The notes below the pieces were generated by a model. That model was not told where the DNA came from. It made no database searches and saw nothing but the letters and a program-made list of their open reading frames with translations. From contig JANLSU010000032.1 in assembly GCA_031362565.1 (NCBI GenBank), positions 1 to 30,067 of the forward strand: a DNA stretch of 30,067 bases. The letters run 5' to 3'. This document shows, in pieces, positions 6,204 to 22,459 of this stretch. The translations under genes and the position numbers were made by a program. The stretch is from a bacterium. Its GTDB lineage: Bacteria; Krumholzibacteriota; Krumholzibacteriia; G020349025. How positions within the stretch are numbered: the first letter of the stretch is position 1; every line of letters starts with the position of its first letter.

Positions 6204-6701
6204 GCGTTCTCGACGCCCCCCGGGTGCAATCTAAAATGGAAGTGCGCCGCGACGCCAGGCGGCGCCACCCCCCGGCCCGGGGCCCACCACGCCGTTGCCG
6301 GGGTGGGGAAGACCACCCGGACCGGCGCCAAATCGGCGCGCGTCGATCGCTTCGTAGATTTCCCACGCGCCCTGCGTGATGCCCGGTTGCGTCTCGTGAC
6401 GTCGCGCGCCCTGGCGTCTGCGGTGCGATCGGGCGCCGGCCGTTCACCTTGGACAACGCGGAACCGCGACGATGATCACGCTATCTCTGGAGTTGGTGAG
6501 ACGGTTTGCGTTATAATTTTGCGAGCACACGATCGTTTGCGGTGGCACTGCCATCGCACCTCGTTCGGACCGAGCCCACCGTCACAATAGAGGCATTCCT
6601 CGCCCCGCGCCCGTGCGAGCTCGGCACATTGTTGTTTGTTCGCTAAGCATCGACTCCGAAGTCATTGCCGTCACACCGCGATTGCTCTCAAGGATGGACC
6701 C

Positions 6702-9700
6702 ATGTCGAAGTGGAATGGTGGGCGTTCGGACCAGGGCATGAGGCCGGGTCGGCGCCACAAAGCCCGCATCGGGCGTTGGATTGCGCTGGCGGGATTGTTT
6801 GCGACCAGCATCACGGCCATACCCTGCGCCTGGGCGGGTGCTGGGTCGGCGCGTCCGATCGACCGTGACGCGCTCACGCCGGCGGAGCGGCAGAAACTGA
6901 ATGGGATCGCGGCCGCTGCCCCCAACGACCTGCTTGACGCCGGGTTCGACATGTTCGCAACCGCGTCCGGCAGCACCGGCGAAAAACCGCAATCCAAGAT
7001 CTGGTACCACGACGGCTCGTATTGGGGCGCGTTCCGTGGCTCGGACGGCGTTGCGATCTATGAAAAGCAAGGCTCGACCTGGGTTCACGGCACATTCGCG
7101 AACGCCCTGCTGTCGACGGGTGGCCACGCCGACGTGAAGTGGACCGGCACGAACCTCTATGTGCTCGTCTACAACACCACCTGCAATGTGTTCGAGTTCA
7201 CGTACAACAGCGCGGCGCGGACCTGGACTCGGACGAGCGGATTCCCGGTCAAGGTGCCCAACCCCGCGGGCTCGGAAACCATGGTGCTCGAGTCGGATTC
7301 GACGGGCCGGCTATGGCTCGTGGCTGAGGGCGGCGGCAATATCAACGCCTACTACACGACGAGCGCCGACCGCAAGACGTGGGCGACCACACCCGTCATG
7401 CTGCAGACCGGCGTCGGTGCCGATGACATCTGCTCGATTGTCGCCTTTGGCGGCAACAAAGTCGGAGTCTTCTGGTCGGATCAGAATCGCGATGACTTCG
7501 GATTCCGCATCCATACCGATGGCGATTCGCCCGCGACGTGGGCAACGAAAGAACTGGTGGATCAAGGCTCCGGGCACGCCGACGACCATCTCAATCTCGC
7601 GTACGATTCGAGTGGCCGCGTGTTTGCGATCACCAAGGACGCCTCCGATCGCATGACTGTGCACCGGCGTAACACCAACGGCAGTTGGTCTCACGTCACG
7701 GACGTTGTGGGCGGGAACGCGACCCGCGGTATCATCATGGTGTCGGAGTCGGATTCCAAGCTCTACATCTTATACACGCGTTGGGGTGTGTCACCGGAAC
7801 GCATCGAGTACCGGGTCGCCGACATCAACATCATGGCCTTCGGCGGCACGGTGCAGTTCATTACTTCGTCCGCCAACTTGAACAACGTCACGGGCATGAA
7901 ACAGATTCTGCCGCCCGGCAGCTTGTGCGCCGCGGCCGAAAACGGCAGCCATTTGCTGTACAACAGCTTCGGCAGTCCGCCGCCGGGCAGCAACCCGCCG
8001 CCACCGCCGCCCACGCCGCCGGTTGCACCCGCGAACGTCTTGGCGTCGTTGCTCAACGGCACACAAATTCACATCACCTGGACCGCGGCCGCGGGCACGA
8101 TCGACGGCTACAATATCTACCGGCAGTTGGACGGCGGCAGTCTGACCAAAATCAACGCCGCCCTGGTCGCGACGCTCAATTTCACCGACACTGCACCGCC
8201 GACGGGGAATCTGTGTTATCTGGTCCGCTCGCAGCGGAATGGCTTGGAGAGCATTTCGTCCACGGCTTCGTGCCTGGCGTACGCTCCGCCGCCGCCGCCA
8301 CCGCCCGCGTCGCCCACGAACGTGCTGGCGTCGTTGTTCAACAGCACGCAGATCCAAGTCACTTGGACCGCTGCCACGGGCACGATCGACGGCTATAACG
8401 TTTACCGGCAGTTGGACGGCGGCAGTTTCGCCAAAATCAACGCCGCGTTGATCACCCTCCTGGCTTTTACCGATACGGCGCCGGCGACCGGCAACCTCTG
8501 TTATCAGATCCGCTCGCAGCGGAACGGACTGGAAAGTGCATCCTCCGGGGCCTCGTGCTTGTCGTATGCGCCACCGCCTCCGCCGCCGGTTCCGCCGACG
8601 GACGTCGTGGCGTCGCTGTTCAATAGCACAGAGATCGAAGTCACGTGGACGGCGGCCACAGGCACGATCGACGGCTACGACATCTATCGGCAGTTGGATG
8701 GTGGCAGCTTCACCAAGATCAACGGTGCTTTGGTGACGTTGCTCACCTTTACGGACTCGGCACCGCCGACCGGCAACCTTTGCTATCAAGTCCGGTCGCA
8801 GCGCAATAGTCTCGAGAGCACGCCATCCGCGGCTTCATGCCTGGCGTTCGCACCGCCTCCGCCGCCACCACCCCCGCCGCCGGCTGCGCCGACAGACGTT
8901 TTGGCGTCGTTGTTGAACGGCACGCAGATTCAAATCGGTTGGACGGCGGCCGCGGGCACGATCGATGGCTACAACATCTATCGGCAACTCGACGGCGGTG
9001 GTTTCGCCAAGATTAACGCCGCCCTGATTGCCGCGCTCGACTTCACGGACCCGGCGCCGCCGACCGGGAACGTGTGCTACGACGTGCGCTCACAGCAAGG
9101 CACCATGGAGAGCGGGCCGTCGACGGCCTTCTGCCTGGACTTCGCACCACCGCCGCCACCCCCGCCACCGGCTGCACCGACGGACATTCTGGCGTCGTTG
9201 TTGAACGGCACGCAGATTCACGTCACGTGGACGGCAGCCGCGGGCACGATCGACGGCTACAACATCTACCGGCAACTGGACGGCGGTAGTTTCGCCAAGA
9301 TCAACGGCGCCTTGATTGCGGCGCTCGACTTCACGGACCCGGCGCCGCCGACCGGGAACGTGTGCTACGACGTACGCTCACTGCAAGGCCCCTCGGAGAG
9401 CGGGCCGTCGACGGCGTCCTGCTTGGACTTCGCGCCCCCGCCGCCACCCCCGCCACCGGCTGCACCGACGGACATTCTGGCGTCGTTGTTGAACGGCACG
9501 CAGATTCAAGTCATGTGGACGGCGGCCGCGGGCACGATTGACGGCTACAACATCTATCGACAGTTGGACGGCGGTAGCTTCGACAAGATCAACGGCTCTT
9601 TGATTGCGGCGCTCGACTTCACGGACCCGGCGCCGCCGACCGGGAACGTGTGCTACGACGTGCGCGCGCAGCAAGGCGTTTTGGAGAGCGGACCCTCGAC

Positions 9701-11027
9701 CGCCTCCTGCCTGGCATTCGCACCGCCGCCGCCGCCACCTCCTCCGCCGGCGCCAACCGAACCGCAGACTCTGACTGCGACCTTGGTCACCGTACCGGGG
9801 AGCGCGGTCCCGGGTGCGGGAGCGTGGCCTTTCGATGAAGGCAGCGGCCAGTCGTTCGCGGATGCCACCGGCGCGGGCCACACCGGCCAGCTTGGCACGG
9901 CTGCCGGCGTCGACACCGCCGATCCGCTCTGGGGCGCGGGCGTAAACGGCACAAGCGCGTTGGTCTTCGACGGTTCGAATGACCGCAGCGCAATCCCCGA
10001 TGCGGCCGACCTGCATTTTGCGGGCAGCTTCAGCATCGAGGCTTGGGTGAAGCGTGATGTCATCGGGGCGAAGCATTGCATCGCCAGCAAGGGCGACAGC
10101 CAGCACCGGAACTTCTGGGTGGTCATCGATGGGTCGAATCGCATCGATTTCCGCTGGGAAACCGCCGGTGGCGGCAACCACGGGGTGACCTCCAACACAA
10201 TCATCGCCGATCTCAACTGGCACCATGTCGCATGTGTGTACGACGCAGTGGTGCATCAGAATCGCATCTATTGCGACGGGCTGCTGGTCAAATCGGCGAC
10301 CGACAACGGCACCCCCATGACCAGCACCGATCCGGTGTATATCGGAGCGCGGTTGTCGAGCGGCAAGCTGACCGATTACTTCCGCGGCAGCATCGACCAG
10401 TTGCGGATCGCGCCGGGAACTCTGTACTTGAGCAACTTCATTCCGGCGACCTCGTTCGGCGGCGGACCGCCGGTGTCGGCCGTGCAGCTCGCGTGGCAGC
10501 CGCCACTGTCGGGTTCCATTGCCGGCTACAACGTCTATCGCCAAGTCGATGGTGGCATGTTCGCGAAGTTGAACGGAGCCCTGATCGGCGCCCCGAGCTA
10601 CGTCGACGGCACGCTGCCGGCCGGCACCCTGTGCTATCAGGTGACGGCGGTGGACGCCATCCCGCAAGAGGGACCGGCTTCGACCGAAGCCTGCGTCAAT
10701 CAGAACGCTGCCAAGGCTGCCACCAAGGTGACGTCGACGACGGCACCGCATAACGACGCCCAGCTGTCGGCGGGTCCGAATCCGTTCAATCCGACAACCA
10801 CCGTTTCGTTCTCGCTGCCGCACGCGGGCGTGATCCACCTCGCCATCTTTGACATCCGCGGCGAACGGATTGTGACGCTGGCCGAAGGTCTGCATGCCGC
10901 CGGTGCGCACACCGTAACTTGGAACGGCCATGACCAACACGGCAGAGCCGTGGCTTCCGGCGCGTACTTCCTGAAGCTCGACGGTGACAAGATCTCGCAG
11001 CACCGCCGTATCGTGCTGCTGAAGTAG
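6702..11027 (+). CDS. Large secreted protein: N-terminal beta-rich (propeller-like) domain, six FN3-like repeats with polyproline linkers, LamG-like domain, split seventh FN3, FlgD/T9SS-like C-terminal domain
   Basis: ATG 6702 after AAGGA; signal-like segment; repeats of W...GYNIYRQ...F.D...CY.V; LamG features (WPFDEGSG, FSIEAWVK, WHHVACVYD, FRGSIDQLRI); PNPFNP...IFDIRG...WNG...SGAYFLKL tail. Confidence 0.9.
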   Translation: MSKWNGGRSDQGMRPGRRHKARIGRWIALAGLFATSITAIPCAWAGAGSARPIDRDALTPAERQKLNGIAAAAPNDLLDAGFDMFATASGSTGEKPQSKIWYHDGSYWGAFRGSDGVAIYEKQGSTWVHGTFANALLSTGGHADVKWTGTNLYVLVYNTTCNVFEFTYNSAARTWTRTSGFPVKVPNPAGSETMVLESDSTGRLWLVAEGGGNINAYYTTSADRKTWATTPVMLQTGVGADDICSIVAFGGNKVGVFWSDQNRDDFGFRIHTDGDSPATWATKELVDQGSGHADDHLNLAYDSSGRVFAITKDASDRMTVHRRNTNGSWSHVTDVVGGNATRGIIMVSESDSKLYILYTRWGVSPERIEYRVADINIMAFGGTVQFITSSANLNNVTGMKQILPPGSLCAAAENGSHLLYNSFGSPPPGSNPPPPPPTPPVAPANVLASLLNGTQIHITWTAAAGTIDGYNIYRQLDGGSLTKINAALVATLNFTDTAPPTGNLCYLVRSQRNGLESISSTASCLAYAPPPPPPPASPTNVLASLFNSTQIQVTWTAATGTIDGYNVYRQLDGGSFAKINAALITLLAFTDTAPATGNLCYQIRSQRNGLESASSGASCLSYAPPPPPPVPPTDVVASLFNSTEIEVTWTAATGTIDGYDIYRQLDGGSFTKINGALVTLLTFTDSAPPTGNLCYQVRSQRNSLESTPSAASCLAFAPPPPPPPPPPAAPTDVLASLLNGTQIQIGWTAAAGTIDGYNIYRQLDGGGFAKINAALIAALDFTDPAPPTGNVCYDVRSQQGTMESGPSTAFCLDFAPPPPPPPPAAPTDILASLLNGTQIHVTWTAAAGTIDGYNIYRQLDGGSFAKINGALIAALDFTDPAPPTGNVCYDVRSLQGPSESGPSTASCLDFAPPPPPPPPAAPTDILASLLNGTQIQVMWTAAAGTIDGYNIYRQLDGGSFDKINGSLIAALDFTDPAPPTGNVCYDVRAQQGVLESGPSTASCLAFAPPPPPPPPPAPTEPQTLTATLVTVPGSAVPGAGAWPFDEGSGQSFADATGAGHTGQLGTAAGVDTADPLWGAGVNGTSALVFDGSNDRSAIPDAADLHFAGSFSIEAWVKRDVIGAKHCIASKGDSQHRNFWVVIDGSNRIDFRWETAGGGNHGVTSNTIIADLNWHHVACVYDAVVHQNRIYCDGLLVKSATDNGTPMTSTDPVYIGARLSSGKLTDYFRGSIDQLRIAPGTLYLSNFIPATSFGGGPPVSAVQLAWQPPLSGSIAGYNVYRQVDGGMFAKLNGALIGAPSYVDGTLPAGTLCYQVTAVDAIPQEGPASTEACVNQNAAKAATKVTSTTAPHNDAQLSAGPNPFNPTTTVSFSLPHAGVIHLAIFDIRGERIVTLAEGLHAAGAHTVTWNGHDQHGRAVASGAYFLKLDGDKISQHRRIVLLK
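8025..9750 (+). repeat. Six tandem ~285-bp intragenic repeats (FN3-like unit plus poly-Pro linker)
   Basis: Units start near 8025, 8310, 8592, 8886, 9174 and 9462; units 4-6 are very similar at DNA level. Confidence 0.9.
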
Positions 11028-11414: not shown

Positions 11415-12656
11415 ATGTTTTCACGTCTTTGCCTTGCCGCCTGGTTGTTTTCGGGCCTGCTACTGCTGGTTTCGATGGCCCAGGCTCAAGAACGACAGTT
11501 GGCTGCGACGCTGGATTTCGAGGTCGGCAGCGCCGAGCTCGATGCACGGCACATCGTTATCCTGAATGGAATCAAGGCTCAGTATCCGCCCGACGATTAC
11601 ATCTATTCGTTCGAGGGCGACCACGATCCGAGCCCGTTCGACATCATCACGCCCGGAGCATCGAAGCGCGTCAACGAACGGTTGGCAGAGAGCCGCTGGC
11701 AAGCGGCGGCGTTGAATCTCGATGTGCCGGCGATCGGGTTGGTGCGCTATACGGGAAAGACCCAGGCGCGGGTCTACGTGCAACGCCGGACGGCCCGGGG
11801 TTCGGACGGCACGTTGGGGATGGGCCAGGGTGCAGTTGCGGACTCCCTGGCGGCCCTGCGCCGTGGACTGGATGACCTGTACCGTTGGAACACCGAGCTG
11901 GAAGCGATACGGAAACGCGGCGCGCCGGCCGATACGATCCTCGCGGTGGCCCGCTTCGAGGAACTCCACGAACGCTCCGACAAGTGGGTGGACCGGAGCT
12001 GGTGGGAAGGTCAAGGCGGCTTCGAGCTCGGCATCCTGCGCGTGTCACCGGAACGGCCCGACAGGCACACCGGCGTGACGCTGGCCATCAGTAATGGTAC
12101 GCCGGCGTATCACGCTCTCGACATCAGCACCCGGCTGGATCTCTTCCGTCTCGGTACGTCACGCATCGGGATCACTCCCGCATTGCGCTGGTACGACTGG
12201 GACGTGCGGGTGCACTACGGGACCGACTCGCGTACCGCCACCAGCTTCATCAACAACGCCGACCCCGTTTACCTCATAGGCGCCGAGCTGGACGCCGTCC
12301 CGTGGAATCGAGGCCTGCTGCGCGTCGGGTATGCAGGCTTCGGAGCGCGCATCCATGCGGCGCATCGCAACGTCATCAGCTACGATCAATACAATGCGCG
12401 CTTGGATCAGAACCTGTGGCCGCACTGGCGTCTCGAGCTGCAGGGCGTGTACGACGAGCGCTTCGACAAATCGCTGTGTTACTACGGGGTCTGGGTTGCG
12501 CACGGCTGGCGCATGTTGCTGGGTGAGTTCTCGATGCGCTTGGGCTTCGTGGAGCAGCTCGACGCGTTTGCCGCCGCCCGCCTCGGCCGCGAGGACCCGA
12601 TCAGCACGGTCTCGGTCGGCTTCTCCTGGGAGCGGCAGCGGCGGTTCATGTACTGA
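11415..12656 (+). CDS. Exported protein with degenerate N-terminal OmpA-C-like domain and probable C-terminal beta-barrel
   Basis: GGAGG RBS; signal peptide ending AQA; FEVGSAEL...FEGDHD...NERLAESR; alternating aromatic beta-strands ending VSVGFSW. Confidence 0.75.
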   Translation: MFSRLCLAAWLFSGLLLLVSMAQAQERQLAATLDFEVGSAELDARHIVILNGIKAQYPPDDYIYSFEGDHDPSPFDIITPGASKRVNERLAESRWQAAALNLDVPAIGLVRYTGKTQARVYVQRRTARGSDGTLGMGQGAVADSLAALRRGLDDLYRWNTELEAIRKRGAPADTILAVARFEELHERSDKWVDRSWWEGQGGFELGILRVSPERPDRHTGVTLAISNGTPAYHALDISTRLDLFRLGTSRIGITPALRWYDWDVRVHYGTDSRTATSFINNADPVYLIGAELDAVPWNRGLLRVGYAGFGARIHAAHRNVISYDQYNARLDQNLWPHWRLELQGVYDERFDKSLCYYGVWVAHGWRMLLGEFSMRLGFVEQLDAFAAARLGREDPISTVSVGFSWERQRRFMY

Positions 12657-14176: not shown

Positions 14177-14440
14177 GCGTTCTTGCCAGTGCAAGGCCTG
14201 TGACAAGGTCGACTTGGACTTCTGGAAGACCGGCTATCACCTTGAGGCGCTGAGACGTTGCCGACCACACGGCCCGATCGCACGCTTCTCGAGCAGCGCG
14301 CAAGGGCGGCGGATTGCTCACATCGCCTACAGCCCTTCGTCAACTCGAGAGCCAAGGACGGGTCCCGTTGCGGACTTCGGGGTCGGTCCGACGCGAGAGC
14401 CTTGTGCGAGGAGGGAGAGAACCCGCGCCTTCGGGCCCCG

Positions 14441-15242: not shown

Positions 15243-15347
15243 CGTGGCGACTCTTCCGGAGACCGAGCGGCCGAAGTGGTACACTGCAAGTAGAAATAGA
15301 CGCGGCGCGACGCGCTGGAGGAGAACATGAACAAGAAGGAGCAATCC

Positions 15348-15761
15348 ATGGCAAAGAAAGCGGGCTTGTGGATTGACCACCGGAACGCCGTGATCGTGAC
15401 GCTTTCGTCCGACGGCGAACACATCAACGAGATCCAGTCGGATGCCAGTGGGCACGTGCGCTATTCGGGTGGCGCGGAAGCGGAACCGGAAGACCGGCGC
15501 GACCGTCACATCGAGAAGGAACTCAACGACTACTTCGATGCCGTCATCGGAACCATTCGCGATGCAGAAGCGATCTACGTCTTTGGCCCCGGCGAGGGCA
15601 AGACGCAATTCGCGACCCGCCTCGAGCACCACAAACTCACCGACCGCCTGGCCGGCGTCGACGCCGCCGACAAGATGACCGAAGGTCAAGTCGCAGCCAA
15701 GGTGCGCGAGCACTTCGCGAAGGACAAGTCGTCCCACAGTCACAAGCACGCCGGTGGCTGA
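15348..15761 (+). CDS. Small eRF1-domain-2 / host-attachment-like (baeRF superfamily) protein
   Basis: GLWIDHRNAVIV, IYVFGPGEGK, DKMTEGQVAAKVREHF; AAGGAG RBS; alternative start at 15327. Confidence 0.75.
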   Translation: MAKKAGLWIDHRNAVIVTLSSDGEHINEIQSDASGHVRYSGGAEAEPEDRRDRHIEKELNDYFDAVIGTIRDAEAIYVFGPGEGKTQFATRLEHHKLTDRLAGVDAADKMTEGQVAAKVREHFAKDKSSHSHKHAGG

Positions 15762-16519: not shown

Positions 16520-16552
16520 GGCTCTCCTTGCTACGGAACACGGGAGAGTCGC

Positions 16553-17806
16553 ATGGTGGTCTCGACTCGATCGATCACGCCGTCTCCGGACCGCTCGCCA
16601 GCCACTCCGGCAACGCCGCCGGTGCCGTGGTTCTTGTGGGCCGTCGTTCTTGCGTCGACGAGCGTCATCATCGGTCTCCTGTGGGATATCTCCTGGCACC
16701 GGACGATCGGGCGCGACCGCTTTCTGACCCCAGCACACATCGCGATCTACCTGGGCGGATTGGTCGCAGGTCTCTCGTGCGGCTGGCTCGCGCTGCAAAC
16801 GACATTTGGGCGCAACGACGCGGCGCGCGCCGCCCGCGAAGGCGGCATCGGCGTGTGGGGATTCCGCGGCTCGCTCGGCGGCTGGATCTGTATTTGGGGC
16901 ACGTTTGCGATGCTGACATCGGCGCCATTCGACAATTGGTGGCATGGCGCCTATGGACTCGACGTCAAGATTCTGAGCCCGCCGCATGTCTTGCTTGGCC
17001 TCGGTATGATTGGAATCGAGATCGGCGCCATGATCATGGTGCTGGCGTACCAGAACCGATTCGCGCCGGCCTATTCCGGACCGCGGTCGATCGTGTCGCA
17101 GCCAAGCGGACGGGCGCACGAACGCGTTCTTGTGTGGATGTTCATCTATACGGCCGGTATCGCGCTGCTCATGGGGGCAACTCTGTGCATGGAGTACATC
17201 GGCTTCCCGAATGCGTGGCACAATGCGTTGTTCGCCCAGATTTGTGCCGGCGCGTTTCCGGTCTTGCTGGCGGCGGTGGCCCGCGCCGGGCGACTCCGCT
17301 GGTCGGCGACCGCGATCGCCGGGGTCTACACGGGCATTACGCTGCTCATGATGTGGATCTTGCAGTTGTCACCCGCGACGGCGAAGCTGGCGCCGATCTA
17401 CAACCCGGTAACGCACATGGTGCCGCCGCCGTTTCCGATGTTGTTCTTCGTGCCGGCGATCGGTTTCGACCTGCTCGTGCGCCGCTTCGAGGGCCGCAGC
17501 GACTGGTTGCTGGCGGTCATTCTAGGAGTCATGTTTGTCGCCGTGACCTGCACGTTGCACTGGTTGTTCGCCAAATTCCTCATCTCACCGGCGGCGCGCA
17601 ACATCGTCTTTGGCGCCAACCAGTGGGACTACAATTCCCGGCTTGGACCCTGGCGCTACGAGTTTTGGGATTTAGACCTCGACAAGAGCCGAAACTGGAG
17701 CCCAGCGCTCTACGCGCGCGGCATCGGAATCGCGCTCGGGCTCGGCATCCTGTCGACGCGGCTCGGACTCGGCTGGGGCCGTTGGATGTCGAGGGTGTTG
17801 CGATGA
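16553..17806 (+). CDS. Polytopic membrane protein with two D-x3-H...H metal motifs; putative PmoC/PmoA-like fusion
   Basis: Roughly 10 hydrophobic segments; WDISWHRTIGRDRFLTPAH and FDNWWHGAYGLDVKILSPPH. The CDS is solid; the functional call is inference. Confidence 0.8.
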   Translation: MVVSTRSITPSPDRSPATPATPPVPWFLWAVVLASTSVIIGLLWDISWHRTIGRDRFLTPAHIAIYLGGLVAGLSCGWLALQTTFGRNDAARAAREGGIGVWGFRGSLGGWICIWGTFAMLTSAPFDNWWHGAYGLDVKILSPPHVLLGLGMIGIEIGAMIMVLAYQNRFAPAYSGPRSIVSQPSGRAHERVLVWMFIYTAGIALLMGATLCMEYIGFPNAWHNALFAQICAGAFPVLLAAVARAGRLRWSATAIAGVYTGITLLMMWILQLSPATAKLAPIYNPVTHMVPPPFPMLFFVPAIGFDLLVRRFEGRSDWLLAVILGVMFVAVTCTLHWLFAKFLISPAARNIVFGANQWDYNSRLGPWRYEFWDLDLDKSRNWSPALYARGIGIALGLGILSTRLGLGWGRWMSRVLR

Positions 17807-19410
17807 CAGCGCAGCTTCGCCGCGCGGCGCACGTCGCGCGGACCGCGATCCTCGCCACCGCCATCGTCGCGCTCACCGGAATGCAGAGCATCTGCCTGGC
17901 GCACATTGGCAGCCCGGACACTTGGTACGAGGGACCGGCCGGCGCCTACCCGTTGCGGGTGATTGTACGGGCGCCGAGCGTCGTACCCGGTCTTGCGGAC
18001 ATCACCGTGCGGGTCTTGGACGGCCACGCGACCCGCGTCACCGCCGCGCCCTACATCTGGAATGGCGGCGACACCGGCGCACCGCCGCCCGACGTCGCCA
18101 AGCCGGTACCGGGCGATGCGCAATTGTTTTCCGTGCCGCTCTGGTTCATGACGCCGAGCTCGTACAGTGTGCGGGTGAATGTCGAAGGGGATCGCGGCTC
18201 CGGAACCGCGGTGGTCCCCGTTCAAGCGGTCGCACTCCGGCGTCTCGGCATGCAGAAAACCCTCGGCGTGACGCTCGCGATTCTGGGCATCTTCCTGGTC
18301 GTGCTGGCGCTCAGCATCGTGTACGGCGCTGCGAAGGAAAGTGGTGTGCCGCCGGGCGCAACCAGTGGTGCGAACAGCAAGGCCCGATCGCTGTACGCCG
18401 TTGCTGGTGCAGCCGTAATTCTGGCCGTTGCCGCGACCGGCGGGCGCTTCTGGTGGAGCTCCGTCGATCGGGATTTCCAGCGCACCATCTACAAGCCCTT
18501 CACGTCGGCGGCCCGGGTCATCGAGCGTGGGACCGCGCGCGGGCTCGATTTCGAGATCACCGATCCCGTGTGGCGCGGGCGGCGCTGGTCGCCGCTCATT
18601 CCGGATCACGGCAAACTGATGCATATGTTCTTGATTCGGGAGCCCGGGTTCGATGCGATCGCGCACCTGCACCCGGTGCCGACGGATTCGAGCCACTTCG
18701 AAGTCTGTATGCCGCCGGTGCCCGAGGGGCAGTATCACGTCTATGCAGACATCGTGCACGAAAGCGGCTTCACGCGAACGCTGACGGCAACGGTGGATGT
18801 GCCGGCGCCCAACGCATCGAACACCGCAAGCGCGACCGCCGCCGCGGCGGATACAGCGGCCGCGTTCCATACCGATCCGGACGACTCGTGGTACGTGAGC
18901 CCATCCGGCGTTCAGGCAGCGTCACCGGGCGAGCGGGTGGCGCTCGCGAACGGCGCGACGATGACGTGGGAGGCGCCCGATGCGAACCTCGTCGAAGGAC
19001 GCGACGCCGGCCTGCGCTTCGCGGTGCGCAACGCCGACGGTACGGCCGCCGCAATCGAACCCTACATGGGCATGCTCGGTCACGCGATCGTGCGCCGCGA
19101 CGACGGTTCCGTCTTCGTGCACTTGCACCCGATCGGCACCGTTTCGATGGCGTCGCAGATGGCGCTCATGATGCGCGCTCCGAGCGACAGCGTTCCCGGC
19201 ATGCTCGGCCGCCGCATGAGCGCGCCGGGTCACATGGAGCACATGATGGGTGGGTCGATGAGCGGACTCCCTCACGAACCGGGCGTCGTGATGTTCCCGT
19301 ACGGATTTGCGCAAGCCGGGGCCTATCACATTTGGGTCCAGATCAAAATGAACGGGCAGATTCTGACGGGAGCCTTCGCGGCGACGGTGAAGCCGCCGCC
19401 GCCAGCCTGA
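17803..19410 (+). CDS. Exported, membrane-anchored His/Met-rich protein (signal peptide, mature N-terminal His, two central TM helices, two HLHP domains); PmoB-like topology
   Basis: ATGA overlap with upstream gene; ...SICLA|HIGSP; two TMs at about aa 154-177 and 196-218; HGKLMH, AHLHP, MLGH, VHLHP, GHMEHMM. Confidence 0.8.
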   Translation: MTAQLRRAAHVARTAILATAIVALTGMQSICLAHIGSPDTWYEGPAGAYPLRVIVRAPSVVPGLADITVRVLDGHATRVTAAPYIWNGGDTGAPPPDVAKPVPGDAQLFSVPLWFMTPSSYSVRVNVEGDRGSGTAVVPVQAVALRRLGMQKTLGVTLAILGIFLVVLALSIVYGAAKESGVPPGATSGANSKARSLYAVAGAAVILAVAATGGRFWWSSVDRDFQRTIYKPFTSAARVIERGTARGLDFEITDPVWRGRRWSPLIPDHGKLMHMFLIREPGFDAIAHLHPVPTDSSHFEVCMPPVPEGQYHVYADIVHESGFTRTLTATVDVPAPNASNTASATAAAADTAAAFHTDPDDSWYVSPSGVQAASPGERVALANGATMTWEAPDANLVEGRDAGLRFAVRNADGTAAAIEPYMGMLGHAIVRRDDGSVFVHLHPIGTVSMASQMALMMRAPSDSVPGMLGRRMSAPGHMEHMMGGSMSGLPHEPGVVMFPYGFAQAGAYHIWVQIKMNGQILTGAFAATVKPPPPA

Positions 19411-19417
19411 ACGCACT

Positions 19418-21067
19418 CTATCTCGCGATCATCATGCGCCGCACATGGTCGTGGCCGGCGGTGCGCAGGCGCACGAAATAGACACCAGCCGGCACCGGGG
19501 CGCCAGCTCGGCCGCGGCGATCCCAGGATGCGACGAAGCGGCCTGGCTCCGCGGTTCCCGCGAAGAGGGATTGGATCTCGCGGCCGCGGACGTCGAACAC
19601 GACGAGCGATGCATCGCCCGTAGCTCCGACGTTGTACGCGATTCGCACCGCACCGCTCGGACGCACGAGCGGAATTGGATCGAGGCCGGTCACCGCGATC
19701 GCGGCAGTCGCTTGCACCGGACCCGCGGTAGTTACGACACCGGACTGCTCCACCAGCTCGAGGCGGTACGCATAAACGGTTCCGGGCCGGACTTCCGCGT
19801 CCGTCCACGCGAAGCCTTGGCCTTGCGCCGCGAAGTCCTGGGCCGGGTGCTCGGTGCGAGTTTTGAATGCGCTGGTGGCAGCATCCTCGCCGCGGCGCGC
19901 AATACGAATCGTTCTCAACCCCGCGACAGCCTCAGGTGCCATGCGCCAAGTCAACTGCACACCGTCTTGAAGTGTCTCGGCGCGCAGATCTTCGACGGCG
20001 ATTGGTGTCCGCTGGCCATCCCACCGCGCGATGCCGAGCGCACTCTTGCCAGCCACTTCGATGAACGGACCGCCGCAATAGAGGCTACCATGGAAAGGGG
20101 CGATTGCTTCGATTCGCGCGTTGAGTTGCGTGCTGAGCGGCACCCAGTTCGACCCCTGAACCCGGTAGAGCCGGCCACGTTCATGGTAGCCGTTCGGAGT
20201 GACCTATTCATTCCACGATGTTGCAACGACAAGCTCGCCGTTGTACCACGTCACGTCGTGCACTGCGACGTCGGGGGCATTGCCGACGAGTGTCCATGTG
20301 CTGCCGGACCATCGGACGAGGTGGATCTTGCCGTCCGGCAGGGTGCTGCCCAGTGCGTAGAGGGCACCGTTGACGATGCGCAGATGTTGCACGTGGCGGA
20401 TCGGTTGATCGTGAAACGATGCCCATTCGGTTCCGGTCCATTCGGCGACGCTCGAAATCGAGCGGCGCCCATTCCAATTGAAATCGCCGCCGGCCAGTAG
20501 CCGGCCGTCATAGACGACAAGGTCATGGATCGCGCCACCGTAGGGCGGGAACGGCGTCCCTTCCCACCGCTGGCCCGTCCAATGAGCGACATTGGGTGTC
20601 TGGTTCGTGCCGTTGTAGAAGAAGGGGCCCGCCACGAACAGTTCGTTTTGGTATGAAGCAAACGTCTCGACATTCCCACTGAACCGCTCTCCAAACGACG
20701 TCCAGGCGCTGCCATCCCACGCCGCGATGCCGTTCGACGGCTGTCCTCCCGCGTGCGTGAAGGCGCCGGCGACGTACAGGCGATCGCCGATCGTCGCCAC
20801 TGCGGAGACGGTGCCATCGACACCGGCTCCGATCGATTCCCACGTCGTGCCGCTCCAGCGCGCGACGCCGGAAATCGGCTGCCCACCGGCCGAAGTGAAG
20901 TTGCCGCCCGCGACCCAATCGCCGCGGTAGCTGGCGAACGCGCTCGGATACGCTTGTGGGCGCAAGTCATCGTTCCAGCGTGCGTCGACGCCTTGCCCGG
21001 AAGTGAGTGGCTTCCAGCGCCTGGCCGGACGTCCGAAGGCGGTCCGTCGGCGCAACGTGACGATCAT
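19418..21067 (-). pseudogene. Beta-propeller repeat protein with FlgD/T9SS-like C-terminal domain, interrupted by one in-frame TAG (20204-20206)
   Basis: ORFs 20204-21214 and 19418-20143 share a frame, and translation continues sensibly across the stop (SWNE*VTPNGYHERGRLYRVQGSNWVPL). GGxFTxAGG / ARWDG repeats; likely ATG at 21067 after GGAGG. Confidence 0.75.
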
Positions 21068-21238: not shown

Positions 21239-22459
21239 TCACGGACTCGCCTGCAGGCGTCGAAAACGAAGTTCCGCGATCAGATCCGCAGTGATTTTGG
21301 GGGGGAATGGCAGCGTTCCACTTGCCAGCCGCTCGCCGAGCGATGCCAGCCGTGCGAGCAAGCCATCGAGCACCTTCTCGGCGCCGCGGGCCGGGAGCCC
21401 AATTTCCGACGCAAACTCCAGCAGGTGTTTGCGGGAGATGCCCGAAGTCCGGCCGAGCATCGACAGCGCCAGGCTCGTGTCGCCATACGGCACCGTCGAG
21501 GGAAGGTCGTATGCCGGCGAGATGCGCCATTCCCGGTCGGAGGTGGCGAGGATCGAAAGGTTCTTGGCGTGCACGTCACCGTTCCCCGTCAGCCACGCGA
21601 AGCAAATTTGTTGGTACAGGGCGCGCAGCGCGACCGGCCGCGCCGCGCACCGGTCGGCGAGCGCGCCGACCACCTGTTCGTACGTCACGCTGTACTTGTC
21701 GGCAGGCCATCGGCCCAGCACCTGGCACGCGTCCTCACATGCTAACGCCACGCTCGAGCCATCACGCTGGGCAATGCGGTCGAATCGGCGCACCAGCAAT
21801 CCGGCCTGCCCGTCGGCGTCGTGGACAACGGTGGCTCGCGCGCAAGATAAGCGCGTTTCGTGGGCGAGTTGCAGGAAGAAGGCCTCGTTCTCCACGACGT
21901 GCGGGAACTCGGGTGGATTGAGCTTGAGCAGGTAACGCTCACCGGCGCGCGCCAGCGGCACCGAGATCATGCGTGCGGATACTTTGTCCTGCACCCCTGG
22001 GAGCGCAACGGCATCGACGATGCCGGTGTCGGTGAGCACGTCCGCGAAGCGGACGTCGGACCACTCGCGTTCCACGGCAAGAAGCGGACGGGCCGGCGTG
22101 GCCGGCTGGCCGCTTGGCACGACTTGGACGTCGCCGATCGTATCGTGACCAACGGCGAGTAGCAGCGACAGCTCGTCGTCGGCGGAAGCCTTCACCGAGC
22201 GGCGAAGCCCCGATAGTCTTCGGCCTTCCGGTAGAAGGCCGGTGAAGAACGGCGGCACCGCTCCGGCGGTGCTGCGGACCGGCTTGTCGCTCAACGGCAA
22301 GGTGGTTGCAACCGCAGGTCTGCCCGATGCGAGGTATTCGGCGCTGTACGAGAATTCGATGCCGTCAGTCTGACGTCTCAATGTCGCCGCATGGATGCCG
22401 GATTTGTAAACCGCCGCTTCGACAACTGTTGTCAGTGCTTCGAGATGGGACGTGTTCAA
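21239..22459 (-). CDS. hipA: HipA-family toxin (kinase) with N-terminal HipA-couple domain
   Basis: PPFFTGLLPEG, LPGVQDK, YLLK, ENEAF, RRFDR, EDACQ, GNGDVHAKN, SPAYD. Confidence 0.92.
   Translation of the reverse strand: MNTSHLEALTTVVEAAVYKSGIHAATLRRQTDGIEFSYSAEYLASGRPAVATTLPLSDKPVRSTAGAVPPFFTGLLPEGRRLSGLRRSVKASADDELSLLLAVGHDTIGDVQVVPSGQPATPARPLLAVEREWSDVRFADVLTDTGIVDAVALPGVQDKVSARMISVPLARAGERYLLKLNPPEFPHVVENEAFFLQLAHETRLSCARATVVHDADGQAGLLVRRFDRIAQRDGSSVALACEDACQVLGRWPADKYSVTYEQVVGALADRCAARPVALRALYQQICFAWLTGNGDVHAKNLSILATSDREWRISPAYDLPSTVPYGDTSLALSMLGRTSGISRKHLLEFASEIGLPARGAEKVLDGLLARLASLGERLASGTLPFPPKITADLIAELRFRRLQASP

Follow-up and report, generated by a model that had tools for sequence, protein, structure and literature searches.

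The particulate methane monooxygenase (pMMO) and the ammonia monooxygenase (AMO) govern methane and ammonia oxidation. According to the portions of PMC11725843 and PMC13058606 consulted here, debate continues over their active site, the CuC/CuD pocket in subunit C beside subunit A, and expressing or purifying these enzymes is very difficult. The same portions assign two copper sites to AmoC/PmoC, formed by two His residues together with an Asp (CuC) or an Asn (CuD), and regard the pocket that holds both sites as the active site (PMC13058606, PMC11725843). Here we analyse a gene pair that resembles these systems. It lies in a stretch of 30,067 nucleotides (nt), referred to below as the window, from a bacterium of the phylum Krumholzibacteriota (GenBank assembly GCA_031362565.1, contig JANLSU010000032.1, positions 1 to 30,067, forward strand). 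The first gene encodes a 417-residue membrane protein and the second a 535-residue exported partner. On balance, the 417-residue protein is probably a single-chain, very distant relative of two pMMO/AMO subunits that acts together with this partner. The structural and evolutionary part of this reading is, in our opinion, highly likely, while chemistry of the oxygenase or oxidoreductase kind, rather than copper handling alone, is put forward only tentatively and with less than even confidence.

The fused gene and its PmoC-like metal core

The open reading frame (ORF) of 417 codons at 16553-17806 (+) has a strongly coding-like composition (GC content at third codon positions 0.81). A preliminary description of positions 17120-17806, which encode residues 190-417 of this ORF and include its stop codon, had proposed that a PmoA/AmoA-like module is fused there to a PmoC-like half. 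The AlphaFold2 model (mean predicted local distance difference test, pLDDT, 89; predicted template-modelling score 0.89) contains ten long helices, four in the N-terminal half (N-half) and six in the C-terminal half (C-half). The main features of the gene are as follows.

16553..17806, + strand: gene of a ten-helix membrane protein of 417 residues, a PmoC-like core fused to a PmoA-like domain (ORF, relatives, AlphaFold2 model)
16628..17062, + strand: N-half, residues 26-170, four transmembrane (TM) helices, PmoC/AmoC-like candidate metal-binding core (hhalign, weak Pfam AmoC match, ESM Atlas)
16685..16738, + strand: putative site 1, D45-x3-H49-x12-H62 (WDISWHRTIGRDRFLTPAH), aligned by hhalign to PmoC DGTWHQTxxRDTxFTPSH, invariant in 108/108 relatives
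16931..16987, + strand: putative site 2, D127-x3-H131-x13-H145 (DNWWHGAYGLDVKILSPPH), aligned by hhalign to PmoC NEWGH..x..APLH, invariant in 108/108 relatives
17063..17110, + strand: polar linker joining the halves, residues 171-186 (pLDDT 58-67, without secondary structure, length varying across the alignment)
17111..17803, + strand: C-half, residues 187-417, six long helices, predicted PmoA/AmoA-like fold
16542..16546, + strand: GGGAG, resembling a ribosome-binding site, 6 nt 5' of the ATG (read from the sequence)

The family to which this protein belongs is large, with at least 6965 relatives (6965/8000 scored candidates, E <= 0.001). Among the 120 matches listed, relatives are 361-496 residues long, the nearest shares 83% identity, and the named ones are annotated as "hypothetical protein" and come mostly from Gemmatimonadota. 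The family alignment comprised the query with 45 of these 120 relatives (46 rows) and also yielded the AlphaFold2 model; ORFs taken from metagenome loci later brought it to 108 rows, and all residue-conservation counts given for this family refer to the 108 rows. For comparison, 120 reference pmoCAB/amoCAB loci were retrieved with the primer A189f as a DNA pattern, and PmoC, PmoA and PmoB were translated from 24 of them, chosen by organism name and ORF layout. The PmoC/AmoC set numbered 23 sequences (pmoCAB, amoCAB and pxmABC), one mispicked ORF having been excluded.

The strongest sequence evidence concerns the N-half. Aligned by hhalign to the 23 PmoC/AmoC sequences, residues 20-178 gave a homology probability of 92.7% (E 4.4e-7, 89 columns), with residues 44-145 matched to positions 133-224 of the 265 in PmoC; the 108-row alignment gave 89.8% (E 1.8e-6). 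Thus, profile-profile homology of 90-93% extends across both metal sites, and the PmoC-like N-half presumed in the preliminary description holds. Controls were far lower, at 6-8% against PmoA (E 0.004-0.006) and 0.1-0.2% against PmoB, and in global mode hhalign collapsed for every pair except N-half with PmoC. ESM Atlas, taken as a lead only, has two AmoC clusters (0.89 and 0.88) in its list of the closest named neighbours of the N-half, and the single match of Pfam AmoC (PF04896) in the 5.4-Mb genome, a weak one (12 bits, E 0.22), falls on residues 45-68. These alignments make the N-half a relative of the PmoC metal core at the level of sequence.

In the alignment, WDISWHRTIGRDRFLTPAH falls opposite DGTWHQTVIRDTDFTPSH and DNWWH...PPH opposite NEWGH...APLH, with the spacing unchanged. 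The families thus have in common the D-x3-H-x12-H and (N/D)-x3-H-x13-H spacings together with the RD and TP(S/A)H signatures. Each of D45, H49, H62, D127, H131 and H145 is present in 108/108 relatives. D45, H49 and H62 match the CuC-type ligand pattern (Asp, His at +4, second His 13 positions beyond the first) and are candidate copper ligands. The CuD-type pattern of PmoC has Asn, His at +4 and a second His 14 positions beyond the first; here, H131 and H145 align and are invariant, and the putative first ligand is Asp127 where PmoC has Asn; the residue that follows it is Asn (N128) in 81 and Asp in 27 of the 108 relatives. A further difference is that the N-terminal helices of PmoC are missing from the 417-residue protein, the N-half of which has four helices.

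The PmoA-like half and its fusion to the core

At the level of fold, the PmoA/AmoA likeness proposed in the preliminary description is well supported. The eight best Foldseek matches in the PDB were all chain B or Ca of pMMO/AMO entries (E 0.06-0.17, probability 1.00, TM-score up to 0.59 on the target), and these chains are subunit A, as a search with real PmoA confirmed. VIA-align of the Foldseek candidates placed residues 182-417 on residues 14-243 or 19-248 of the pMMO/AMO chains, so that the modelled C-half appears to follow the PmoA fold over its whole chain. Structural alignments to PmoA/AmoA (PF02461; PDB 7s4h_B, 6cxh_B, 4phz_B, 9cl6_B, 9leg_A) showed 9-15% identity. It should be noted that the VIA structure lists hold one chain per entry, so that PmoC rows may be hidden behind PmoA rows. 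The profile comparison of the same region came out differently: against the 24 PmoA/AmoA sequences hhalign gave 3.3% (E 0.013) with 46 rows and 9.8% (E 0.0033) with 108 rows, which is not significant. Because the structural similarity is strong, the likeness to PmoA stands, with its profile part unsupported. In the predicted models the likeness is clearly non-random, whereas by sequence alone it does not rise above chance.

The weak hhalign alignment, obtained at -mact 0.05, is colinear over 220 columns and places residues 182-417 on positions 56-289 of a 293-residue PmoA ORF translation. It pairs EYIGFPNAWHN with GDWDFWxDWKD, RLRWSAT with RLPxGAT, FP..PA...D306 with P..vP.A..LD, and HW337 with NW. 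This arrangement is consistent with the fold match, of which it is not an independent proof. The candidate counterparts of PmoA motifs are these.

17192..17221, + strand: polar cluster E214..N220..H223 in the loop after the first helix of the C-half, at the position of PmoA GDWDFWxDWKD (low-confidence alignment)
17291..17311, + strand: RLRWSAT loop, aligned to PmoA RLPxGAT (hhalign, PmoA consensus)
17432..17470, + strand: FPMLFFVPAIGFD with invariant F294, P295 and D306, aligned to PmoA P..vP.A..LD (hhalign)
17561..17563, + strand: W337 (in "HW"), aligned to PmoA NW (hhalign)

Conservation at these positions is high. E214 and H223 each occur in 103/108 relatives and N220 in 94/108; W250, A252 and T253 of the RLRWSAT loop occur in 99/108, 102/108 and 106/108; and F294, P295, D306 and W337 are each found in all 108. 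The residue before W337 is Gln in 65 and His in 40 of the 108 relatives. The strings quoted in the preliminary description all occur in the translation where it had placed them (MEYIGFPNAWHN, residues 213-224; AFPVLLAAVARAGRLRWSATAIAG, 234-257; FPMLFFVPAIGFDLL, 294-308; LLAVILG, 319-325; HW, 336-337). The PmoA motifs it had cited agree approximately with the consensus of the 24 translated loci, which reads ..aGDWDFW.DwKD.., ..tf.aA.qy..W...RlPfGAt.., ..fPinfV.P.t.ip.a..lD.., ..iTa.vGg... and ..yp.Nwp. Also as described there, GDWDFWxDWKD is absent and MEYIGFPNAWHN lies at the aligned position, where the E..N..H residues stand in its place, although the alignment is of low confidence at this point. 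The polar linker at about residues 168-191 is likewise real, being the only long stretch of the model that is unstructured and of low confidence (pLDDT 58-67).

A different origin of the fold match must be weighed at this point. The C-half could be a generic six-helix binding bundle of the kind found in energy-coupling factor (ECF) S-components, or a convergent look-alike, rather than a relative of PmoA. S-components too have six long helices, the fold neighbourhood of the C-half includes them, and sequence profiles give no significant tie to PmoA. Nevertheless, PmoA/AmoA entries of good resolution scored 2-4 Z units higher than S-components and aligned 40-50 more residues, end to end, and the wide structure library represents pMMO only by the low-resolution entry 3chx_B, at 9.3. 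Of the three alignments made for the C-half, moreover, the weak colinear one to PmoA ranked first (PmoA 9.8%, PmoC 0.2%, PmoB 0.2%). The S-components 5edl_A, 4z7f_A and 5kbw_A match the C-half at a lower Z than PmoA does and give no sequence signal, and the C-half is fused to a PmoC relative in the order pmoC-pmoA. The 11 other window ORFs that were scanned include no ECF or ATP-binding cassette (ABC) gene, and thus neither EcfT nor EcfA of the ECF module; S-component genes can occur singly, and the missing module is for this reason weak evidence. All in all, we consider an origin of the C-half outside the PmoA lineage very improbable, and relationship to PmoA remains the preferred reading.

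The covalent connection of the C-half to a C-like part also sets the protein apart from PmoA/AmoA, which is a separate subunit of xmoCAB/ABC systems. The preliminary description had considered a natural C-A fusion unusual and suggested a search for homologues encoded by two genes; no intact two-gene form was found. Every match in the best 80 metagenome loci covers both halves, none beginning later than residue 33. Where a match stops short of residue 409, the contig end has cut it (L147, L184, L185, L187), except in L199, where the best segment stops at residue 360. The phylum of a Thermoanaerobaculia metagenome-assembled genome (MAG; Acidobacteriota) was sampled with 301 genomes, of which 15 are carriers; 15/17 of their matches run through both halves in one frame, and the remaining two come from a single frameshifted copy, one from each half. 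In the Gemmatimonadota carriers (301 genomes sampled), 67/73 matches are whole and in a single frame. The halves are fused in all intact relatives examined.

Several broken copies were inspected individually. An apparent split at the domain boundary in one genome (G524) was rejected as a two-gene form, there being a +1 frameshift in the conserved LAxQNR and no start codon for a second gene. A total of 1030 short proteins match the N-half, and many of them are contig-end fragments. Recurrent 192-residue proteins were also rejected as a split form: their non-homologous Arg/Pro-rich tail is the signature of a frameshift, as judged from a comparison of the proteins alone. Copies broken near or just past the domain junction could be assembly errors or decaying genes. 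The individual cases are the following.

G322, C1:2131801-2132948: frameshifted copy in the Acidobacteriota set, two overlapping frames with TGA
L226 (G524, C123), 1474-1658: frameshifted copy on a 2.4-kb contig
P0251, P0252, P0257, P0258 and P0271: near-identical 192-residue truncations with Arg-rich tails, on contigs of Mb size

The partner gene and a possible function of the pair

Directly downstream of the 417-residue gene, the ATG of a second gene overlaps its TGA (ATGA).

17803..19410, + strand: partner gene, 535 residues (ORF; at least 1463 relatives)
17803..17904, + strand: predicted signal peptide, residues 1-33, and invariant His34, the predicted mature N-terminus (alignment)
18256..18489, + strand: predicted TM hairpin, residues 152-229, between an N-terminal immunoglobulin (Ig)-like domain and two C-terminal Ig-like domains (AlphaFold2 model)

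In 65/69 testable loci of the 80, a partner homologue follows immediately downstream in the same orientation; in two it is found about 4.7 kb downstream, and in two there is none despite room of 1.2-2.1 kb. The other 11/80 loci end within 136 nt past the 417-residue gene and could not be scored. In the partner alignment (the query and 39 of 119 other listed relatives, 40 rows), His34 is present in 40/40, the preceding position is occupied by Ala (31), Gly (8) or Ser (1), as is typical of signal-peptidase sites, and H269, H274, H288, H290, H427, H440 and H442 are invariant as well. The partner also carries a Met-rich linker and the conserved motifs HLHP and YMGMxGH. In the AlphaFold2 model (pLDDT 86), one Ig-like domain is followed by two TM helices and two further Ig-like domains. 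The partner had no Pfam family match, and its three domains, scanned singly, gave only sub-threshold PKD and LicP matches.

Complex prediction for the 417-residue protein and the partner scored 0.83, and the best control 0.00. That mark was reached by 116/157 solved complexes and 2/215 mismatched pairs, counts that are only approximate because our own alignments were used. At least 87% of contacts were common to the runs, with partner pLDDT of at least 83. In the predicted interface, the first TM helix of the partner packs against helix 3 of the PmoC-like core, and loops of its N-terminal domain lie above residues 131-143 (the site-2 loop) and 276-283 (the C-half). The prediction supports binding of the partner to the 417-residue protein, which we regard as most likely and which probably takes place over the face with the metal sites.

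The position and architecture of the partner recall PmoB/AmoB (PF04744). The gene occupies the same place after the C and A parts, and its product would begin with a signal peptide, predicted to be cleaved just before a His that becomes the mature N-terminus, and has, in the model, a periplasmic β-sandwich, two TM helices and further periplasmic β-sandwiches. The differences are that the partner has three Ig-like domains where PmoB has two cupredoxin domains, and that no HxH pair like that of the CuB site was recognised in its N-terminal domain. As a PmoB homologue the partner was rejected (7.9% in hhalign against 23 PmoB sequences, no Pfam match). Its fold lists contained generic Ig-like folds, and PmoB was absent among the 50 rows shown in each of two VIA searches and in the Foldseek list. 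A search of the genome with PF04744 found no match either, but it was silent in control genomes as well and carries little weight. Since no PmoB homology was detected, the parallel is described here as architectural only.

The analysis thus shows that the N-half is homologous in sequence to PmoC, that the C-half resembles PmoA in fold, that the six candidate ligands are invariant, that the gene pair is conserved and that an interface between its products is predicted. Taken together, these features suggest how the pair may work. The first four helices would form the subunit C metal core, with two Asp/His/His triads near the predicted outer membrane face, and the last six would adopt the subunit A fold. 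The partner would be exported, matured to an N-terminal His, and cross the membrane twice, displaying three Ig-like domains with conserved His residues; the order C-like, A-like, partner at the B position mirrors pmoCAB. The triads may be copper sites in the manner of CuC and CuD of PmoC, and the partner may cap or feed the metal site from the periplasm. The complex could then use copper for redox chemistry, acting on a small or membrane-soluble molecule lodged between the C-like and A-like parts. We infer that the pair may be a membrane redox enzyme dependent on copper, akin to the copper membrane monooxygenases (CuMMOs) but separate from them.

The main rival to this proposal is that the pair acquires or delivers copper and is not an enzyme, so that its homology to PmoC and PmoA reflects ancestry only. 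CopC-CopD and YcnI/YcnJ of B. subtilis are copper uptake systems in which a periplasmic Ig-like domain with an N-terminal His works with a polytopic membrane protein. By the same logic, the partner would capture periplasmic copper through its N-terminal His and its HxHP/Met-rich Ig-like domains, and the Asp/His/His sites would receive the copper and pass it across or along the membrane. The overall plan is indeed alike, an Ig-like domain with an N-terminal His in the partner and conserved His residues in the polytopic 417-residue protein, and the HLHP and YMGMxGH motifs and the Met-rich linker of the partner fit such a role. Also in its favour are weak Pfam matches to YtkA (best E 5.6e-4) and CopC (0.067), each in 3/40 partner relatives, the self-contained nature of the gene pair, which has no conserved redox partner, and an OmpR-type regulator near 9 and a histidine kinase near 8 of the 80 loci. 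However, the matches to these families are below threshold, the partner encoded in the window has itself neither a YtkA nor a CopC match, and its fold matches tie with dozens of generic Ig and fibronectin type III domains. Furthermore, the 417-residue protein shows no CopD-like fold or family, and no metal-transport role of PmoA-like domains is known. Copper delivery appears unlikely to us, and we continue to favour a distant relative of two pMMO/AMO subunits acting with its partner.

A number of observations weigh against the favoured interpretation and should be kept together. The fold evidence derives from predicted models throughout. A Pfam scan of the 417-residue protein gave no match even at E 10, NCBIfam gave nothing at threshold, and the AmoC match lies well below the Pfam gathering threshold (12 bits against a cut-off of 26.7). 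Only about the last 130 residues of PmoC are covered, and a full-length subunit C was not matched (133-224, or 110-259 at -mact 0.05, of 265 positions). Site 2 has Asp in place of the Asn of PmoC. Besides the non-significant profile similarity of the C-half to PmoA, which the N-half control about equals, no AMO-like neighbour of the C-half was found in ESM Atlas; this last result is uninformative because the best named neighbour (0.79) is a "hypothetical protein". A search of the whole genome with PF02461 at E <= 1 had no match, homology of the partner to PmoB was undetected, and no conserved reductase or downstream-metabolism gene was found nearby in the 80 loci. Finally, in a divergent variant found in 2/301 Gemmatimonadota genomes, the C-half is kept (E 4e-58 and 3.5e-54) and all six Asp/His ligands are lost. 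No partner homologue was seen beside the variant gene in the stretches fetched, one of which (L227) ends about 520 nt downstream. The ligand loss together with the undetected partner hints that partner and metal sites belong together. The two variant genes are located as follows.

L227, 1502-2644, + strand: divergent variant, from genome G629
L228, 1847-3334, - strand: divergent variant, from genome G666

The most far-reaching form of the proposal, in which the gene pair is a minimal working copper membrane monooxygenase and a deep sister lineage to pMMO/AMO, is in our view decidedly unlikely to be correct. If true, it would mean that such an enzyme is spread in non-methanotrophic soil and sediment bacteria, including 23% of the sampled Gemmatimonadota, and acts on a substrate not yet assigned to such bacteria, for example a trace gas or small hydrocarbon, hidden from all surveys by pmoA/amoA primers and hidden Markov models (HMMs). 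Whatever its activity, a family with both triads, a C-A fusion and one partner could offer a simpler two-gene system in which to study the CuC/CuD pocket by mutagenesis and spectroscopy. As an outgroup, it may also bear on the still unexplained origin of the CuMMO superfamily, and in abundant soil phyla it may stand for an oxidative or copper-handling activity that has gone unrecognised.

Detectability, distribution and neighbouring genes

The preliminary description had predicted that standard primers and HMMs would probably miss this family, and this proved correct for the window gene, on which the Pfam scan, PF02461 and A189f were all negative. PF02461 was positive in 3/3 control genomes of methanotrophs and nitrifiers. 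The primer A189f targets the GDWDFWxDWKD motif, and its pattern had no match in the 417-residue gene at up to 3 mismatches. Outside the gene there is a near-match with 2 mismatches at 14208-14225 (+), which is within chance (at least one in 6/100 shuffles). Surveys based on pmoA/amoA marker genes would thus be blind to the branch to which the 417-residue family belongs. The 5.4-Mb genome of the window, 100% complete by marker genes, carries the 417-residue gene once and has no canonical match to AmoC, AMO or Monooxygenase_B, the Monooxygenase_B search having been silent in controls too. PDB sequences, compared by phmmer and with the family profile, gave chance matches only (E > 0.5). A described fused PmoC-PmoA-like family was not found in the full-text literature, a coverage that leaves out subscription journals; the consulted part of a recent AMO review does not mention a natural fusion, and the part of PMC8782848 that mentions pmoC and Gemmatimonadetes MAGs contains nothing resembling the 417-residue gene.

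The gene was found in 1/208 genomes searched in the window's phylum (G000, the window's own) and in 69/301 sampled Gemmatimonadota genomes (23%), and on account of this disparity the distribution suggests that the gene pair was gained by horizontal transfer. The local GC content around the pair, 0.62-0.67, is unremarkable within the window. Among the neighbours in the 80 loci, the commonest encode a solute-binding protein (10), the OmpR-type regulator and histidine kinase counted above, and PEBP (8). Counts this low (at most 10/80 loci) led us to reject neighbours beyond the gene pair as members of the system. A promoter scan found none, and terminator-like sites were near the expectation from shuffled sequence.

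The remaining genes of note in the window are listed below. The HipA-like kinase is probably the toxin of a toxin-antitoxin pair, and the 1463-residue and 241-residue proteins resemble type IX secretion system cargo.

11415-12656, + strand: coding-like ORF, 413 residues, no Pfam family at E <= 0.01
15327-15761, + strand: coding-like ORF, 144 residues, no Pfam family at E <= 0.01
21239-22459, - strand: HipA-like kinase gene (Pfam HipA_C 1.9e-43, Couple_hipA 2.4e-21)
6636-11027, + strand: 1463-residue protein with five fn3 domains, a LamG-like domain and a FlgD_ig/Por_Secre_tail C-terminus
19418-20143, - strand: 241-residue protein with a FlgD_ig-type C-terminus

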